Assembly (NCBI GenBank): GCA_963835065.1
Contig: CAWIEK010000059.1
Span: 1 to 51,077, forward strand
Origin: an uncultured Chthonomonadaceae bacterium
GTDB lineage: Bacteria > Armatimonadota > Chthonomonadetes > Chthonomonadales > Chthonomonadaceae
Direction of reading: 5' to 3'
DNA: 51,077 bases
This document shows, piece after piece, positions 32,004 through 51,077 of this stretch (its first letter is position 1; each line of letters starts with the position of its first letter). Below the pieces are notes generated by a model. It saw only the letters and a list, made by a program, of their open reading frames with translations, did no database searches and was not told the origin of the DNA. The position numbers and the translations under genes are program-made.

Positions 32004-32258
32004 ATGTCCGCCACAAACACGCAATCATTGACGGTACGCCTTCAGCCGGAACTCTATACGGCTGCGACCCATCTTGCGCGTAAACGCTCTCTCAGCCTGA
32101 ACGCGCTGGTACAGCAGAGCCTGGCCGCATGGATTAAATCGGAAGAAGATCGGGAATTGTACGAAGCCTTCGAGGAATTGGGCAAAGATAAAGAGGCTTG
32201 TGATGTGGAGTATGCCTTTGCCGCACAGTCGGAGGTCGTGTTAAGTGACAAATACTGA
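32004..32258 (+). CDS. Putative antitoxin (ribbon-helix-helix-like)
   Basis: LTVRLQPELY...SLNALVQQSL RHH pattern. Overlaps the toxin start. Confidence 0.75.
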   Translation: MSATNTQSLTVRLQPELYTAATHLARKRSLSLNALVQQSLAAWIKSEEDRELYEAFEELGKDKEACDVEYAFAAQSEVVLSDKY

Positions 32259-32604
32259 CGTACCGCTAAAGCGCGGACAACTTCATTGGGTGCAATGGGA
32301 ACCCGGCCGTGGCTCCGAGCAGCAGGGACGCAGGCCCGCATTGATTGTGCAGGCCGATCCCATGAACCAGAGCCGTAACTATACCAACACCATTGTTGTC
32401 GCTATCTCCACAAGCCTGCGCAATGTGCCGACGCATGTAGTTGTAGAACCCTCGGAAACAAACGGTCTGCCCCAACAATCCTCTGTTCTTTGTGAACAAT
32501 TGCTGACCATTTCCCGCGAACGTCTTGACGGGCTTATCGGTGAAATAGAAGCAGGCGCGTTGAGGCAAGTAGACCGCGCTTTACGCCGCGCTCTCGGCCT
32601 GTAA
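32245..32604 (+). CDS. mazF: MazF/PemK-family endoribonuclease toxin
   Basis: RGQLHWV..EPGRGSEQQGRRPALIVQ...NGL..S.VLCEQLLTISRERL. Confidence 0.92.
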   Translation: MTNTDVPLKRGQLHWVQWEPGRGSEQQGRRPALIVQADPMNQSRNYTNTIVVAISTSLRNVPTHVVVEPSETNGLPQQSSVLCEQLLTISRERLDGLIGEIEAGALRQVDRALRRALGL

Positions 32605-37352: not shown

Positions 37353-37357
37353 GGAAG

Positions 37358-37442
37358 GCATTAGGCATTAGGCATTAGAGACAAGACACAAAGCCGGGAA
37401 GTTCGTCCTTGCTTGTCCTTGCATCTAATGCCTAATGCCTAA
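37358..37442. repeat. Palindromic (TAGGCAT)n element with a conserved core
   Basis: Core aagacacaaagccgggaagttcgtccttgcttgtcct is nearly identical to the core in 38959-39075. Confidence 0.85.
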
Positions 37443-38192
37443 CAAGTACCAATCCGCGCACTTCTGCCCATCCTTGCCGACGAAAAAGCCGATTTCATCC
37501 TTTACCGGGTCAATGACAAGGGCGATTTGCCAGTCGGCGCAGAAGATTTCTTCCTGCGTGTCCAGGTCGGTTTCGGAGAGAAAGACGCCCATGTTGGGGT
37601 GGGAGTGGTAGGAGCCGATAACTGTCCAATCGGGCGGCATTTGCTGCAATTGGGGCGTGAGCGCGCGCCATGAGGCGGTTGTGTAGCCGAAGTAGGTGGG
37701 AGTTTCAACGCCGTCCGGCGCGGGCAAGGCGTCGTGAATCAGCAGCAGGTACGCGCGAATTTCCGGGTCGTAAAACGCCTGGCCGAGCAATAAACCGCCC
37801 TGTTCCACTTCCACATTGCCGCGCAGATGCGCCTGCGCTTTGTCCAAAGCCCCGCGATTGACGAAAATATACGCCTGCTGCGGCAAAATCGCAGGCGGAC
37901 GCGGCAGTCCAAGCGTCTGCACAAAAGCAGCGGCGACAACGACAGCGGGCGCGTACACATCCGCGCTGTCCTGCCATTCAATCGTATCCCCGTTCGCGTC
38001 CTCGGAGTTGGACATTGCAGCATCCTTGGTTTGCTCCGCCAACCCATCGCCTGGATTGGCCTTGATGGAAGCGGCTTTGTCCACAACAAGTTTGTTGGAA
38101 GCGGACTTTGCGGACGCAGAGAACATGCGCGCAACGCCTGCCGCCAACAGCGACACCCCGCCAACCCCCGCCAGCACCACCGCCGCATCCAT
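37425..38192 (-). CDS. JAB/JAMM (Mov34/MPN+) metallopeptidase with an N-terminal hydrophobic segment
   Basis: EQGGLLLG ... IGSYHSHPNMGVFLSETD (E...HxH-x7-S-x2-D) ... LVIDP. Confidence 0.9.
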   Translation of the reverse strand: MDAAVVLAGVGGVSLLAAGVARMFSASAKSASNKLVVDKAASIKANPGDGLAEQTKDAAMSNSEDANGDTIEWQDSADVYAPAVVVAAAFVQTLGLPRPPAILPQQAYIFVNRGALDKAQAHLRGNVEVEQGGLLLGQAFYDPEIRAYLLLIHDALPAPDGVETPTYFGYTTASWRALTPQLQQMPPDWTVIGSYHSHPNMGVFLSETDLDTQEEIFCADWQIALVIDPVKDEIGFFVGKDGQKCADWYLLGIRH

Positions 38193-38301
38193 GTCGTTGA
38201 TCCTTTGTAGGCATTAGGCATTAGGCATTAGATATTAGGGAAGAAGACAGAAGACGGAAGACGGAATGTAGGAATTATGGAATATAGGAAGACGGAATAC
38301 C

Positions 38302-38961
38302 CTACTCCAAGTCTTCCCAAACCAGGGACGTGTCTTCGCGCAGGCTGAAAACTGCGGACGCCTCGCCGGATGGTTCGCGCGTTGGTTCGCCGGTCTGTTC
38401 CCCCGCCTGCCGCATCAGTACCCCGATGTCGGGCAATCCGCCGTCGTTGACAGTCGTGTTTGGCGGAGCGCCGATAGGAGGGTCATCGCCCATAAAGGTA
38501 ATGTTGTCGGTTGGCAGCAGCAGAAGGTTGCGCGTGACCCAAAACATCGCCTGCTCGTTGGCCGGGTCCAGAATATCCATATAGCGGCGGTCAAATTGCA
38601 GCATCGCGCCCAAGCGCAGTATCACGTCTTCCAGATACTCCGTCGTCTGCCAGCTTCCCATACAGACCACGCGATTGACATATACATGCGGATTGAAAAT
38701 CGGCGTCTGCATTTCCACAACCGGCGCGGCGGACGGAGCCGGGTAGCGGGCAGGCAGTTTGACGCGCACCCGATTGACATTACGGTACACGGGCTTGCCA
38801 TCCTTGAGCGCTTCGATGCTCCGGCAATGGTACGTCAAAATGTACTCGTCCGGCGGCTGTCCTTTGGTGGACTCAAGGACAAGCCTGCCGCCACTATTGG
38901 CAGCCAGCGCGCGCGCTTGTTCGTAATCGGCCTGTAGGCGCAGGTCTCTTGCGGTAGACAT
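38302..38961 (-). CDS. Ubiquitin-conjugating enzyme (E2/UBC-like)
   Basis: RLQADY...LPARYP..AP.V...TPIFNPHVYVNRVVC..W...L...DPANEQA is a UBC-fold pattern with the catalytic Cys present. Confidence 0.85.
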   Translation of the reverse strand: MSTARDLRLQADYEQARALAANSGGRLVLESTKGQPPDEYILTYHCRSIEALKDGKPVYRNVNRVRVKLPARYPAPSAAPVVEMQTPIFNPHVYVNRVVCMGSWQTTEYLEDVILRLGAMLQFDRRYMDILDPANEQAMFWVTRNLLLLPTDNITFMGDDPPIGAPPNTTVNDGGLPDIGVLMRQAGEQTGEPTREPSGEASAVFSLREDTSLVWEDLE

Positions 38962-39075
38962 TAGGCATTAGGCATTAGGCATTAGGCATTAGATATCAGA
39001 TAGAAGACACAAAGCCGAGAAGTTCGTCCATGCTTGTCCTTCTATACTAATGCCTAATGCCTAATGCCTAATGCC
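38959..39075. repeat. Palindromic (TAGGCAT)n element with a conserved core, between the Ubl and E2 genes
   Basis: (cattagg)x4... core aagacacaaagccgagaagttcgtccatgcttgtcct ...(ctaatgc)x4. Confidence 0.85.
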
Positions 39076-39338
39076 TCTCCTCCTCCGTGCGTCGGAAACG
39101 GCTGCAGCATCAGCACGTCGCCGTTTTGCGCATTGCTGCTGTTGAGCGTGTCATGTGCCATCAATTGGCGGTTGGTGTTCATGTTGACGATTTGAAAATC
39201 CATGCCCATCGAAAGATGCCACCGGCCCCGGCTGGCTTTAATCACATCCCCGACAGTCATGGTACGCGGAACCGTCACTTGCGCCTTGCGCGTCCGGTCC
39301 GCCGTCTGCAAAATGATCGTTACTTTATGGACGCTCAT
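39054..39338 (-). CDS. Ubiquitin-like (beta-grasp) protein with a C-terminal GGG plus extension
   Basis: VTIILQTAD..K.QVTVPRTMTVGDV...LMAHDTL...QNGDVLML beta-grasp pattern. Ends PTHGGGEALGIRH. Lies between E1 and E2. Confidence 0.75.
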   Translation of the reverse strand: MSVHKVTIILQTADRTRKAQVTVPRTMTVGDVIKASRGRWHLSMGMDFQIVNMNTNRQLMAHDTLNSSNAQNGDVLMLQPFPTHGGGEALGIRH

Positions 39339-40659
39339 GGTTTAACTCCTGCTGCTCCTGCTGATTATTGACGGCTTCACGTTGCCCGGCAAGGGAATTG
39401 CTAAAAGGGGAGCCGCGATACTCGCCGGAAATCTGTACGTAATGCCGTTCGCCATCGTGTTTCAACGCCAGCACCTGATGTTCCGGTATACGCAGGAAAG
39501 CCAGCGAACGATGCGCCCACTCGCTTTTCCCGTCCAGCCAGCTTACCGTTTGCGGCTGACGGGCGAGCGTATGGCAGTGCGGACATTGGTTCAGCGCCAG
39601 CGAACACGTTTCCACCGGCTGAAATACGGCTTCCGTGTGCCCACAGTTCTGGCACTGCATCTGCGTGAGCAAATCAAACCCTAATTCGACAATCCCCTCC
39701 GGCATCCCTGCCTGCGCCAGCAATTCCACGATGCTCAATTCATCCGCGCCCTGTTCCAACACCGTGACCGGTTCCCAACACTCGTGCGCCAGACAATCCG
39801 GGCTGCGCGGCAGCGTCACCGTCTGCAATCCATACGGCGCGACGGTCAGGTACAGTTTTTGGCTGAACGCAAGCCCAGATAAGGATGAAGGATGAAGGAT
39901 GAAGGATGAAGCAATTGGCGATTGCCGATTGCCGATTGCCGATTGCGTTCCTGCTGTTCCCTGTTCCCTGTTCCCTGTTCCCTCCTCTCCCTTCCTTCCA
40001 TGCAGCAGCAGCATAACCTCATTCACGGCATACGCGGCGGCAAGGGACGCGACGACGGCGGTGGTAGGCACGGTATTTTCGGGCAGGTCGCTGTGCAGGC
40101 CGCCGCAGGAGAAACGCTGGTTGCGGCGTTCCCACATGGTTTCCGACATGCCGCACTCAAAGCAGGCTTCCGGTTGTGCGGCGTCACGACCGGCAAACAG
40201 GGCGATTTCGGCGAGAGTGGCTTCGATGCCCGTATTGATCCACGGAACGCCCGCTCGATGGCAGGCGCGATTGAGGGCAAGGCGGGCGTTGATGCTGTCC
40301 AAACAGCCGATTACCACATCCATGCCGCGATACACGCCCAGGCCAACGTCAAATTCCAGATTGCCCTGCACCCCAATCGCTTGTACGTCCGGGTTCAGGT
40401 TTTGCGCCCGTTCCGCCGCCACTTGCGCCTTGCTCCGTCCCACATCGGTTTCGCGGAAAAGGACGCTACGGGTCAGATTGGAAAGTTCGATGGTATCGAA
40501 ATCCACGAGCAATAAATGCCCCACACCCATCAGCGCCAGCAGTTTGACAACCTCGTTGCCCACCGCCCCCACGCCCGCCACCAGGACGCGCGCCCGCGCC
40601 AATCGGTCTTGATCCCATCCTTCCAGCAGATGATGTCGGGCATAGCGGTCTTGATTCAT
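39325..40659 (-). CDS. E1-like (ThiF/UBA) activating enzyme
   Basis: RYARH..., VAGVGAVG, DFDTIELSNLTRSVLF, CFEC, candidate catalytic FSCG, CLAH, and a C-terminal domain with CQNC...CPHC. Confidence 0.9.
   Translation of the reverse strand: MNQDRYARHHLLEGWDQDRLARARVLVAGVGAVGNEVVKLLALMGVGHLLLVDFDTIELSNLTRSVLFRETDVGRSKAQVAAERAQNLNPDVQAIGVQGNLEFDVGLGVYRGMDVVIGCLDSINARLALNRACHRAGVPWINTGIEATLAEIALFAGRDAAQPEACFECGMSETMWERRNQRFSCGGLHSDLPENTVPTTAVVASLAAAYAVNEVMLLLHGRKGEEGTGNREQGTAGTQSAIGNRQSPIASSFILHPSSLSGLAFSQKLYLTVAPYGLQTVTLPRSPDCLAHECWEPVTVLEQGADELSIVELLAQAGMPEGIVELGFDLLTQMQCQNCGHTEAVFQPVETCSLALNQCPHCHTLARQPQTVSWLDGKSEWAHRSLAFLRIPEHQVLALKHDGERHYVQISGEYRGSPFSNSLAGQREAVNNQQEQQELNHERP
39881..39982 (-). 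repeat. Composite heptamer cassette in-frame within E1
   Basis: (GGGAACA)n-(CAATCGG)n-(TTCATCC)n translates as GTGNREQGT...SAIGNRQSP..SSFILHPSS. Confidence 0.85.
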
Positions 40660-40660
40660 C

Positions 40661-41416
40661 TTAACTGCTTACTACTTCCTTAACCGTATTCCGCGCCTGG
40701 CAGTTACAGCAGCAACCACGCGCTTCCTTGCGCAAAAACTCCCAGCCTTCCGGGCTGTAGCACAGGCCGCAATGGGCGCATTGGAACAGCGTTCGGGTCG
40801 GGCTTAACGGCTGCCGGGTGACGGGACACACCAACTTGCCGGAAGCGCGTTTTGCCGAACCACTTTGCGACGGATTGAGGGGCACGGGCGCAGGCATTTG
40901 CAAATACGCCAACAATACGGCGACGACATGGGAGCAGGCCAAAGTTCGGGCAGGTTCCGGCAGGGGTTTGCGGTTGTTGGCATTGGCAGGAGCGGCAGGA
41001 GCGGAAGGGATGGAAGGGGCGGCGCGCTTGCGGCAGGTACACGACGCGGTGAGCGTACCGTCCTGAAACAAAATTTCCTGGTCGTCGTAGTGCCGTTCGC
41101 GCGTGGTTCCTGTCAGGCGCGCGCCGCGCGCGTGGACGCGCGTTACCTGTTTGCGCGTCAACAACTGCTGCCCCTGCGCGAAGATATGGGGGGCGCATTG
41201 CGTGGCGATCCAGGCGGGCGTCAGGTCGGCAAAGGCGCGCGGCATTCCGGGTTTCGCCTTCTGAAATGGATCGAGCGGGATGAACTCAATTTCCGGCACA
41301 TCCGTACTCGTATCGGCAGGGTCATACGCGGCCAGGTTCTGTTCGGCGCGCTGCCGAAAACGCCAGGCCGTAAACCGATCTTTTAATTCATCTACCAGTT
41401 CTCGTACTTCGCTCAC
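40661..41416 (-). CDS. SWIM zinc finger + C-terminal RING/U-box-like domain protein (candidate E3)
   Basis: SWIM motif SCTC...ACSHVVAVL. C-terminal CPVT-x12-CAHC-x7-GW-x9-CCCNC. First gene of the E1/Ubl/E2/JAB operon. Confidence 0.65.
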   Translation of the reverse strand: MSEVRELVDELKDRFTAWRFRQRAEQNLAAYDPADTSTDVPEIEFIPLDPFQKAKPGMPRAFADLTPAWIATQCAPHIFAQGQQLLTRKQVTRVHARGARLTGTTRERHYDDQEILFQDGTLTASCTCRKRAAPSIPSAPAAPANANNRKPLPEPARTLACSHVVAVLLAYLQMPAPVPLNPSQSGSAKRASGKLVCPVTRQPLSPTRTLFQCAHCGLCYSPEGWEFLRKEARGCCCNCQARNTVKEVVSS

Positions 41417-41550
41417 AATTTGCGCCTTCTAAATCTTCTTAAAGCATCTTCTTGAATCAGGCTGCTGCAAACGGCATTTGCGCGGCTGCGTATTAACTTG
41501 GTATCTTTGCCTGTATCTCTATTATAGGCTAGTTTTCGTTTTCTGACAAG

Positions 41551-49501: not shown

Positions 49502-50311
49502 CTACCAATGCAGGGCTTCGGGCGCCTCCACAAACATCACCTGTAAATCAGGTATAAGCATATGCTGTCGCTTCATCTCCGCCCATATAGTAGGATGTTG
49601 TTCATTCTGGATGGCCTGAATAGGTTCATGCAAGCGTTCGGAAAACTCCGTCCTTTCACGCCAGCGAAGGTAGCGATGTAAATGCGAAAGATAACCTTGA
49701 TACGCTTGTTTCCGCGCCAATGGAAGGTACGGGCGAGCATTTAGCTGCAAAGCGTCTATGGTATACCTTGCCCGTTGGTAGTTCCTCGATGTCGGCGATC
49801 CAATCGGCAGGAAACGAAATGTATCCAGCAGATCAAGACGCATAAACTCCAGAGGATTTTCGTGTCTCGGATCAATCAGTACAACGTCGCCTGTTTCGGG
49901 ACGAACGATTGACGGTTGCCCAACACGCGCAACCGATATTATTTCTCCAGTGATGGCTGAAAAGACCGCGTATTTGTCACTTTTGCACCTGTTGCAGCCG
50001 CCACACGAGTATACATAGTTCTCCCAAAGAAAAACAGCCTCAGGATAGAGCGATTTGGGTTTGTGATGATCAATCTCAATGGCAGCGCTGTCTTCACAAT
50101 ATCCACAACGCTGCACACCCGAACACATGTCCGTGGGCGTTCTGCGCACGTCCCGAAATGTTGCGGAACTTACGCGATTACGCGCTGTAAACCTTCTGTC
50201 CGCTTGGATGACCTGTTGCGCATACTCAGGAATAGCGTCTATTTGTTGTTGGTAGCTTTGTAAACGCCGCGCTGTTGCTGCGGGAAGGGCGCGATCAGGT
50301 AACTGGCGCAA
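49502..50311 (-). CDS. HNH endonuclease (PtuB-like)
   Basis: CGYCE...IDHHKPK..YP....WEN...SCGGCN..K, followed by LIDP. Confidence 0.85.
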   Translation of the reverse strand: MRQLPDRALPAATARRLQSYQQQIDAIPEYAQQVIQADRRFTARNRVSSATFRDVRRTPTDMCSGVQRCGYCEDSAAIEIDHHKPKSLYPEAVFLWENYVYSCGGCNRCKSDKYAVFSAITGEIISVARVGQPSIVRPETGDVVLIDPRHENPLEFMRLDLLDTFRFLPIGSPTSRNYQRARYTIDALQLNARPYLPLARKQAYQGYLSHLHRYLRWRERTEFSERLHEPIQAIQNEQHPTIWAEMKRQHMLIPDLQVMFVEAPEALHW

Positions 50312-51077
50312 CTAGACGACTCCTGCCGTATCGGGTTTGATAATGTGCGAAGTTGTCGGCATCATGGCGCGCAGTTGCTCTTGTTCGCGTCGTTCTTCAT
50401 TGTTAAGCGTACCGTCCAATTCCTTAAAGTTTAATTCAGCTAGCCGGTCCAACTTCTGTTCACCTTCCTCGGAGCGTCCAACTTCGTTGCCGAATGCACC
50501 TGTGCTGTAAGCATCCAGAATATTGCCGTAAAGCAGTCGGTTTAGCTCCTCCCCGCAAATCATTTGCCCCTGTTCATCCGTTTCCGGCGTCGGCAACTTG
50601 AAAACCGTGCCATGTGTCGCGGCTTGACAGACGAGCGGGCTGTGTGTCGTGACAATGAATTGCATATTCGGAAAATGCTTACGAAACCACACGCCAATAC
50701 GTCTTTGCCATGTTGAGTGCAGGTGCGCGTCCACTTCGTCAATCAGCACCACGCCTGGCACGACAATCTTTGTCTGCCCGGCAGGATCAAAAACCCTGTC
50801 GGAGCCGTAGCAGGCGATCAACTGTCGTATCAAATCAAGCGTCATGCTTAACACCGAACGATACCCGTTGCTGAGTTCTTCGGCGGGAATGGGCAAGTCG
50901 TTGCCGTCCACAAATTCCACGCCTTTAGAAGAAACGCTTTTCAAGCACACGCCAAACGGCAGAAAATCATCCTGATTGACAAAGGCTTTCACCAAATCAA
51001 GCAATTTGCCTTCCGGTTCCTCTTCCAGTTGCTTGAAGCGCAGTTCGCGCAGCCACCTCAAACCTTCCGACAATCCA
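50312..51077 (-). CDS. ABC/AAA ATPase (PtuA-like), 5'-truncated by the window edge
   Basis: LSNGY signature, VLIDEVDAHLH Walker B/D-loop and FIVTTHSP H-loop. Abuts the HNH gene. Confidence 0.85.
   Translation of the reverse strand, partial: GLSEGLRWLRELRFKQLEEEPEGKLLDLVKAFVNQDDFLPFGVCLKSVSSKGVEFVDGNDLPIPAEELSNGYRSVLSMTLDLIRQLIACYGSDRVFDPAGQTKIVVPGVVLIDEVDAHLHSTWQRRIGVWFRKHFPNMQFIVTTHSPLVCQAATHGTVFKLPTPETDEQGQMICGEELNRLLYGNILDAYSTGAFGNEVGRSEEGEQKLDRLAELNFKELDGTLNNEERREQEQLRAMMPTTSHIIKPDTAGVV

Follow-up and report, generated by a model that had tools for sequence, protein, structure and literature searches.

Bacterial tri-ligase systems with a Prok-RING_1 protein (PF14446) were predicted by Burroughs, Iyer and Aravind in 2011, as recounted in parts of PMC7159879, PMC4197634, PMC3417536 and bioRxiv 2023.09.26.559546. 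They encode a ubiquitin-like protein (Ubl), an activating enzyme (E1), a conjugating enzyme (E2), a RING protein and a JAB peptidase in one operon. Since that prediction it has been an open question whether bacteria use a RING-dependent three-enzyme Ubl cascade. The bacterial pathways tested in the papers that we read, CBASS, Bil and Bub, have no RING ligase (E3), and the one reconstituted RING cascade that we found in the literature is archaeal. Our searches, which covered the main texts of the open-licence literature, turned up neither an experimental test of such a RING operon in bacteria nor any variant with a single zinc or with SWIM. Here we describe a compact operon from an uncultured Chthonomonadaceae bacterium, located on contig CAWIEK010000059.1 (assembly GCA_963835065.1). 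The whole stretch of 51,077 nt that we analysed is called the window, and all coordinates are positions within it. By its sequence, the operon is a variant of the predicted tri-ligase class, marked by a one-zinc RING. We lean towards the view that its five genes form a three-enzyme cascade which reversibly tags the cell's own proteins with a SUMO-like logic.

As in the tri-ligase systems, Ubl, E1, E2, RING and JAB lie in one operon and the RING is homologous to Prok-RING_1. Related E1, E2 and Ubl genes accompany canonical Prok-RING_1 proteins in other Armatimonadota families. However, the tri-ligase RINGs have eight ligands in a two-zinc cross-brace, while three of them (2, 5 and 6) are lost here. 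The operon is also minimal, with five genes and a single E2, JAB and RING, whereas the larger operons have one or two E2s, several JABs and RINGs, and add a trypsin-like protease-type gene and other membrane proteins. Caldiarchaeum subterraneum has the same five-component set (Ub/E1/E2/srfp/Rpn11), and its pro-Ubl is trimmed by the JAB. It uses a two-zinc RING-H2 (C3H2C3) and a di-Gly tag (PMC5654768), in contrast to the one-zinc RING, single Gly, optional SWIM domain and docking motifs found here. The initial annotation had proposed a eukaryote/archaea-style cascade; the five components support this, but the one-zinc RING is nearer in its pattern to SP-RING and U-box domains than to the RING-H2 of Caldiarchaeum. 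Bil (BilABCD) resembles the locus in its separate E1, E2, Ubl and JAB genes and in a Ubl with one conserved Gly and a variable tail. As described in bioRxiv 2023.09.26.559546, BilD has an IAD-AAD-CYS architecture without UFD, while the E1 studied here has one adenylation domain plus an additional zinc-ribbon domain at its C-terminus. A RING is absent from Bil, and our Ubl, E2 and JAB were not matched by the PADLOC Bil models, of which the BilD model covers E1 residues 24-136 only. Bub (6E/DUF6527) and type II CBASS (Cap2/Cap3) likewise employ bacterial E1, E2 and JAB chemistry. Bub works with Tyr/Ser oxyesters, gene fusions and DUF6527, whereas the genes here are unfused, E1 Cys185 and E2 Cys100 are invariant, and none of the five matches DUF6527. 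Type II CBASS tags with its cyclase and relies on a fused E2-E1 protein; in the present operon all genes are separate, the Ubl is dedicated and there is no cyclase among the five. Bil, Bub and CBASS thus differ from the operon in their defining features.

The open reading frame (ORF) calls and Pfam matches gave the order RING>E1>Ubl>E2>JAB, all on the minus strand. The five co-oriented genes, the E1 start 1 nt past the SWIM-RING stop and the 14-nt overlap of E1 and Ubl were all confirmed as first annotated. Gaps of 92 nt and 109 nt precede E2 and JAB, and heptamer repeat arrays lie in both. The five genes are real and are conserved as one unit in Chthonomonadales (Armatimonadota). E1 orthologs were present at E≤1e-40 in 17 of the 61 genomes searched, own genome included, and the five genes were contiguous in this order in 10 of the 16 related genomes fetched, so the suggested synteny check showed that the set is co-conserved. 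In one further genome (G003) contig ends interrupt the operon, in genus g7 RING-E1 is located apart from Ubl-E2-JAB, and in genus g5 the E1, the Ubl-E2 pair and a divergent JAB/RING pair lie on three separate contigs. Among 28 metagenome loci, eight extended far enough upstream and the RING preceded the E1 in all eight, at least two of which duplicate genome loci.

On the level of the phylum, the E2 profile matched 61 of 401 genomes, 15 strongly (E≤7e-69) and 46 weakly. The one-zinc RING profile matched 15 of the 401, and these were the same 15 genomes that have the compact E2, including the split-operon genus g5; 12 of them had fed the RING profile and three had not, and kin are not independent. 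The weaker E2 matches that we fetched lay mostly in larger, extended operons, which encode one or two E2s together with several JABs, a Ubl ending in TAG and transmembrane proteins with canonical Prok-RING_1. Loci L091-L125, from other Armatimonadota families, are such extended, membrane-anchored Ubl operons, and a single locus can hold up to five Prok-RING_1 proteins. The E1 tree (40 rows) separated the compact type, which there includes a Chloroflexota- and a Laspinema-labelled metagenome-assembled genome (MAG), from the extended operons, with support of 98/95. It grouped five of the six multi-genome Chthonomonadaceae genera, g8 being the exception, with several long branches. From this tree, inheritance looks vertical.

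The first gene had been annotated as a SWIM-RING E3. Its Pfam match was weak (Rtf2 RING-finger, E 0.07), but the SWIM ligands C126/C128/C161/H163 are kept in 13/13 close homologs and the model has a RING fold. Two parts of the assignment needed correction: the RING holds only five of eight canonical ligands, and SWIM is dispensable. Pfam SWIM misses the window copy and matches 3/13 orthologs. Since the SWIM-type pattern was found in only 19 of 55 RING-family representatives, we consider SWIM an optional accessory. These representatives come from the best 150 library matches of the RING profile, from which we removed 95 multi-stretch matches that are apparently tandem zinc-finger proteins. In ESM Atlas, the SWIM-RING protein resembles SWIM+RING clusters of giant viruses and eukaryotes (0.78-0.84), which serve as leads only.

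The five ligands kept in the RING are C197, C213, C216, C236 and C239, while ligands 2, 5 and 6 are replaced by T200, S221 and G224. The domain aligned without gaps to Prok-RING_1 members over 34 columns (HHalign 93%, E 2.8e-7), with CPVT against CPYC, YS against HH and GW against CW, and all 21 template rows were Prok-RING_1. A direct PF14446 search matched 2/13 RING orthologs, weakly, and gave no match in the genome. Ligands 3, 4, 7 and 8 were invariant in 61/61 aligned rows, and the E2-facing Val/Ile (V199) and Trp (W225) were kept across them. Counts of ligands on the 55 representatives are partly circular, as the pattern demanded Thr/Ser at ligand 2, so we relied on the alignments instead. 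Going by general RING anatomy, the Val/Ile after the first Cys and Trp225 presumably occupy the positions of I30 and W58 in the archaeal srfp. This archaeal RING requires both residues (PMC5654768). According to this register, we are dealing with a degenerate Prok-RING_1 whose E2-proximal zinc site has lost three of its four ligands.

Judged by the same alignment, only the distal zinc site is retained, and this is the SP-RING pattern of SUMO ligases. The SP-RING ligases (Siz/PIAS, Nse2/Mms21) bind one zinc at the distal site, and the UBR4 hemiRING shows the opposite pattern (PMC10873205). The structural model (pLDDT 88) matched Ring1b, RNF4, U-box and Mms21 domains, the last as a weak fold match at rank 22. 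No SP-RING Pfam family was listed among the matches of the 13 RING orthologs, seven of which matched the Rtf2 RING-finger. Because the RING here descends from Prok-RING_1, with its four-Cys distal site, the SP-RING likeness is most likely convergent; the docking-type motif also lies upstream of the RING, unlike in SP-RING ligases. No transmembrane helix was found in the RING protein (0/13 orthologs), as opposed to 42/42 in the extended operons. Two variants, L036:8630-8809 and P0119, start with DPVT, which is nearer to a U-box start, and lack the equivalents of C197 and C237. Since both are lost together, C197 and C237 may act as a pair. When the RING profile was compared with PDB sequences, it matched mainly C2H2 arrays, and the matches to the NOT4 RING (E 0.028) and NOSIP (E 0.036) were too weak to be used.

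A second feature recalls SUMO ligases. The E2 C-terminus (LVWEDL), the JAB N-arm (IEWQDS) and the RING N-arm (IEFIPLDP) have a common hydrophobic-x-aromatic core with acidic flanks, and these strands lie in otherwise unalignable segments. In the compact E2s a Trp was found within the last 10 residues in 22/22 and the strict pattern in 19/22 (background 0.16%). The JAB arm showed its pattern in 16/16 (background 1.4%). Of the RING proteins, 43 of 53 representatives had the arm pattern ahead of the RING (background 3-7%), and F45 was nearly invariant. Backgrounds were counted in the ORFs of the genome, and two of the 55 RING representatives were dropped from the motif count. The extended operons have DDLEIEL-type strands at the same places, which resemble SUMO-interacting motifs (SIMs; PMC12751080), in place of the Trp/Phe-type motif of the compact operon. 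Charge follows the motif on the Ubl side. The beta2 charge was +2 to +4 in 20 of 22 compact-type rows. A basic beta2/alpha1 surface marks the compact type, whereas L036, L059 and L060 have a near-neutral one, and in these three loci the E2-tail motif has lost its acidic residue.

SUMO E3s hold the donor SUMO via a SIM, a grip on a SUMO-fold donor (PMC12751080); its counterpart here is putative, drawn from the motif and a weak complex score. The predicted complex of the Ubl with residues 28-62 of the RING protein scored 0.34 (best control 0.02), which passes a mark reached by 116/157 solved complexes and 2/215 mismatches. However, only 18 of the 157 solved complexes passed with a score of 0.60 or under, and both mismatches did so as well. 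The runs agreed in at least 80% of contacts, with a partner pLDDT of 50-52 and no interface assigned, and the score may have passed because the pair resembles solved SUMO-SIM complexes. Taken from conservation and the model, the shared strand is probably a SIM-like Ubl-docking motif, and we slightly favour binding to the groove of the Ubl. The strand LNWR(D) recurs in the E2, the JAB and two downstream proteins of L060, one with a P-loop, and these proteins may be Ubl-binding partners or targets.

The Ubl gave only weak Pfam matches (Rad60-SLD, E 0.03; YukD, E 0.04), and its model is a beta-grasp (pLDDT 86) with SUMO first and ubiquitin among the top structural matches; the Caldiarchaeum Ub:Rpn11 complex was at rank 9. 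The single beta-grasp proposed in the initial annotation is therefore retained, and its GG motif is not. Gly85 was invariant in 39/39 aligned Ubls and Gly86 was not. Among 20 distinct compact Ubls ending in QPxxxHG, six stop at that Gly, six add a Gly and eight add another residue, so we rejected GG as the functional end in favour of the single Gly85. Because Gly85 alone is conserved and the tail is variable and partly derived from the TAGGCAT array, the mature end is predicted to be His-Gly. BilA also has a single conserved Gly (bioRxiv 2023.09.26.559546). With a mono-Gly (HG) C-terminus, GG-remnant mapping would miss the conjugates. In a related operon with two E2s (L060:5396-7789 and L185) the Ubl ends in EGG.

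The three enzymes were largely as first described. The E1 matched ThiF at 2e-50 through one domain (residues 16-213), and its candidate catalytic Cys185 was invariant in 16 aligned orthologs. C166/C169/C289/H292 were also invariant and are a likely zinc site. In PDB sequences, the eukaryotic conjugation enzymes UBA7, UBA1 and SAE2 ranked above MoeB. The C-terminal domain may be a ubiquitin-fold domain (UFD), which binds the E2 in E1s of eukaryote type, a lead only: ESM Atlas look-alikes were E2_bind (0.78) and UAE_UbL (0.76), HHalign to the Ubl gave 1%, and no UFD match was found in the PDB sequences. The UBC-like E2 matched UQ_con at 1.5e-5, just under the cut-off, with Cys100 invariant in 13 aligned orthologs, as were P91/H92; its best PDB sequence matches were also eukaryotic, UBE2L3-type and UBC9. 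The JAB matched Prok-JAB at 5e-8, and its full set of metal and catalytic residues (E130/H196/H198/S206/D209) was invariant in 11 aligned orthologs. Its membrane anchor is soft, as 4/11 orthologs reach a hydropathy of 1.8, a value that internal E1 helices reach too.

These features argue strongly for a conjugation pathway, which we regard as very probable from the sequences. It is highly improbable that the genes serve a sulfur-carrier or small-molecule pathway of the ThiS/MoaD or cysteine-synthase type in which the JAB matures the carrier. The E1 does match ThiF/MoeB families, below their curated cut-offs. However, the operon has an E2 with an invariant Cys and a SUMO/Ub-like tag without a conserved GG, and its surroundings show no conserved sulfurtransferase or synthase gene. 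ThiS/MoaD carriers have a GG end, no E2 and sulfur-pathway neighbours and so differ from this operon in all three respects, and three ThiS-family genes lie elsewhere in the genome, one of them beside a separate ThiF/MoeB-like match on contig C42. The choice of protein conjugation over a sulfur carrier made in the initial annotation was upheld.

More weight has to be given to a two-enzyme E1-E2 pathway in which the E2 picks the targets directly and the degenerate RING protein has no E3 activity but serves as a scaffold or as an adaptor that binds the Ubl, although we consider this rather unlikely. The E2-proximal zinc site has three of its ligands replaced, and Bil, as described in bioRxiv 2023.09.26.559546, works with E1, E2, Ubl and a deubiquitinase only. 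One locus (G010) has E1-Ubl-E2 without adjacent RING or JAB, on a 5.7-kb contig. On the other hand, the RING fold and both E2-facing residues, whose equivalents the archaeal RING needs (PMC5654768), were kept across the 61 rows, the co-occurrence of RING and compact E2 was exact (15/15), and SP-RINGs bind their E2 without the same site (PMC10873205, PMC12751080). E3 activity of the RING is the likely alternative, to judge by what its sequence has kept.

The same chemistry could serve anti-phage defence, in which case phage proteins would receive the Ubl, as they do in Bil. Those bacterial relatives that have been tested, CBASS and Bil, act in immunity (PMC11601603), tri-ligase Ubl systems have been described inside conflict systems (PMC7159879), and a gene pair of an ATPase and an HNH-type nuclease lies 8 kb off in the window. 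Nevertheless, the Ubl and E2 have no Bil-type match and the BilD match covers only the shared adenylation core, the E1 tree follows genera, and g5 and g7 have kept the genes even though these now lie dispersed at separate loci. At E≤1e-10, PADLOC matched five of 105 mechanically chosen neighbouring ORFs, each an isolated gene, so the neighbours are mostly not defence genes. No phage-borne E2 relative was confirmed among 57 pattern matches in viral contigs. What recurs instead are ATP-grasp/Alpha-E/transglutaminase genes (three genera) and a Leu/Phe transferase (one genus). Of the two roles first suggested, defence or regulation, the former has little contextual support and we find it unlikely; a housekeeping role in regulation or proteostasis seems the better choice. 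Because the genome already has a degradation tag in its UBact-proteasome set, we think it likelier that the tag serves regulation or quality control than that it acts against phages or directly signals to the proteasome.

Several observations weigh against a RING-dependent housekeeping cascade with SIM-like docking. The motif patterns were defined after inspection of the alignments, and the docking strand could instead bind the E1 or the E2 backside. Scores of the RING fold are middling, without a Foldseek match at E≤0.001 (best E 0.011) and with a VIA Z under 8 (Z 6.7, rmsd 2.8, 60 aligned), and E2 engagement in canonical RINGs uses the very zinc site that is lost here (PMC10873205). The E2 has (H/N)PH in place of HPN and a diverged loop 7 (WQTTE); UFC1 is an E2 that is functional without HPN (PMC12032130). 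G010, the anti-phage function of the studied relatives and the distribution also belong here: the operon is present in 13 of 31 family genomes, a patchiness that is common among defence genes, and the profile of the one-zinc RING had no match in the Chloroflexota- and Laspinema-labelled MAGs with related E1s, whose completeness is unestablished.

If the preferred three-enzyme cascade operates, the JAB would trim the 9-residue Ubl tail after Gly85. The E1 would then adenylate Gly85, load the Ubl on Cys185 and hand it to Cys100 of the E2. The RING, held by its remaining distal zinc site, would dock the E2 via V199/W225, while its N-terminal IEFIPLDP strand could pair with the donor Ubl at the basic beta2/alpha1 groove and keep E2~Ubl closed. 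Where present, SWIM might help to choose substrates, and a lysine of the target would finally accept the Ubl. Both the E2, by the like strand on its tail, and the JAB, by the one on its arm, could be recruited to the Ubl, and the JAB, here with a membrane-type N-terminal helix, would remove the tag.

The coordinates of all features are collected in Table 1. Five sigma70-like sites were found compared with 2.4 +/- 1.7 in shuffles, and the one before the operon was the sole 11/12 site.

Table 1. Features of the compact Ubl operon, given as positions in the window
Feature	Position	Strand	Basis
sigma70-like promoter, TTGTCA-17-TATAAT	41521..41549	-	consensus match only, 11/12, ~105 nt upstream of first gene
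Candidate E3, 251 aa: N-terminal arm, SWIM domain, one-zinc RING	40661..41416	-	alignments, fold matches
Docking-type motif IEFIPLDP, RING-protein residues 43-50	41267..41290	-	conservation, pattern count, complex prediction
SWIM zinc site C126-x-C128 ... C161-x-H163	40928..41041	-	invariant in 13/13 close homologs
Degenerate RING, residues 196-245	40682..40831	-	register to Prok-RING_1; RING/U-box fold
E1, 444 aa: single ThiF adenylation domain, C-terminal domain with four-Cys zinc ribbon	39325..40659	-	
E1 candidate catalytic C185 codon	40105-40107	-	ortholog alignment
In-frame E1 insertion, ~35-40 codons, heptamer repeat arrays, ortholog-variable loop	39881..39983	-	
SUMO/ubiquitin-like protein (Ubl), 94 aa	39054..39338	-	beta-grasp model, fold matches
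Predicted mature Ubl end His84-Gly85 (Gly codon)	39084-39086	-	
TAGGCAT array, partly encoding the 9-residue Ubl tail	39047-39076		
E2, 219 aa: UBC core, NPH for HPN, unaligned linker, C-terminal motif	38302..38961	-	
E2 Cys100 codon	38662-38664	-	
E2 C-terminal motif LVWEDL	38308-38325	-	
JAB/JAMM peptidase, 255 aa, full metal site	37425..38192	-	
JAB N-terminal hydrophobic segment	38130-38186	-	
JAB arm motif IEWQDS	37965-37982	-	

Heptamer arrays are plentiful genome-wide (200 TAGGCAT arrays) and enter coding sequence in frame. An element of about 40 nt lies between inverted TAGGCAT/ATGCCTA arrays at 37356-37442 and 38955-39076 of the window and once elsewhere (C16:72496-72537). The neighbouring mdh, to which the initial annotation had drawn attention, was rejected as part of the system, as it is adjacent in only one of 17 loci, in a same-genus genome; the divergent TPR gene, adjacent in 0/17, was rejected as well. 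At 49502-51076 on the minus strand, an ATPase-like gene cut by the contig end is followed by an HNH-type nuclease gene, a possible defence pair judged by eye. A small gene pair at 32004-32604 on the plus strand resembles a MazE/MazF-type toxin-antitoxin module, also judged by eye. Loci L025, L026, L027, L031, L032 and L116 have circularly permuted ATP-grasp, Alpha-E and transglutaminase genes and a GlnB-like gene directly upstream of the RING, and the ATP-grasp/Alpha-E/transglutaminase cluster is a predicted second protein-modification module. Elsewhere in the genome (G000:C49:30200-41500, L156) lie genes for a proteasomal ATPase, UBact, proteasome subunits and two Pup-ligase-family genes. A link of the operon to the Pup/UBact proteasome by co-occurrence was uninformative, with Pup-ligase-family genes in 60/61 relatives.

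A bolder reading is that a bacterial lineage independently evolved the design of SUMO ligases. It would comprise a one-zinc, SP-RING-like E3 made from Prok-RING_1 and a SIM-like strand that E3, E2 and protease have in common and whose charge covaries with the groove of the SUMO-fold tag. The system would be inherited vertically and used for regulation outside defence, with a SWIM-RING fusion that parallels eukaryotic and giant-virus proteins. We regard this as possible but somewhat doubtful. If the docking strand is a true equivalent of the SIM, bacteria have non-covalent reading of Ubls by short motifs, and the bacterial one-zinc RING arose separately from SP-RING. The related RING operons of Armatimonadota are larger and membrane-anchored, unlike the compact one, which can be reconstituted because it consists of five small proteins, four of them without a clear membrane anchor. 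The compact operon would thus make the long-predicted bacterial RING operons testable.

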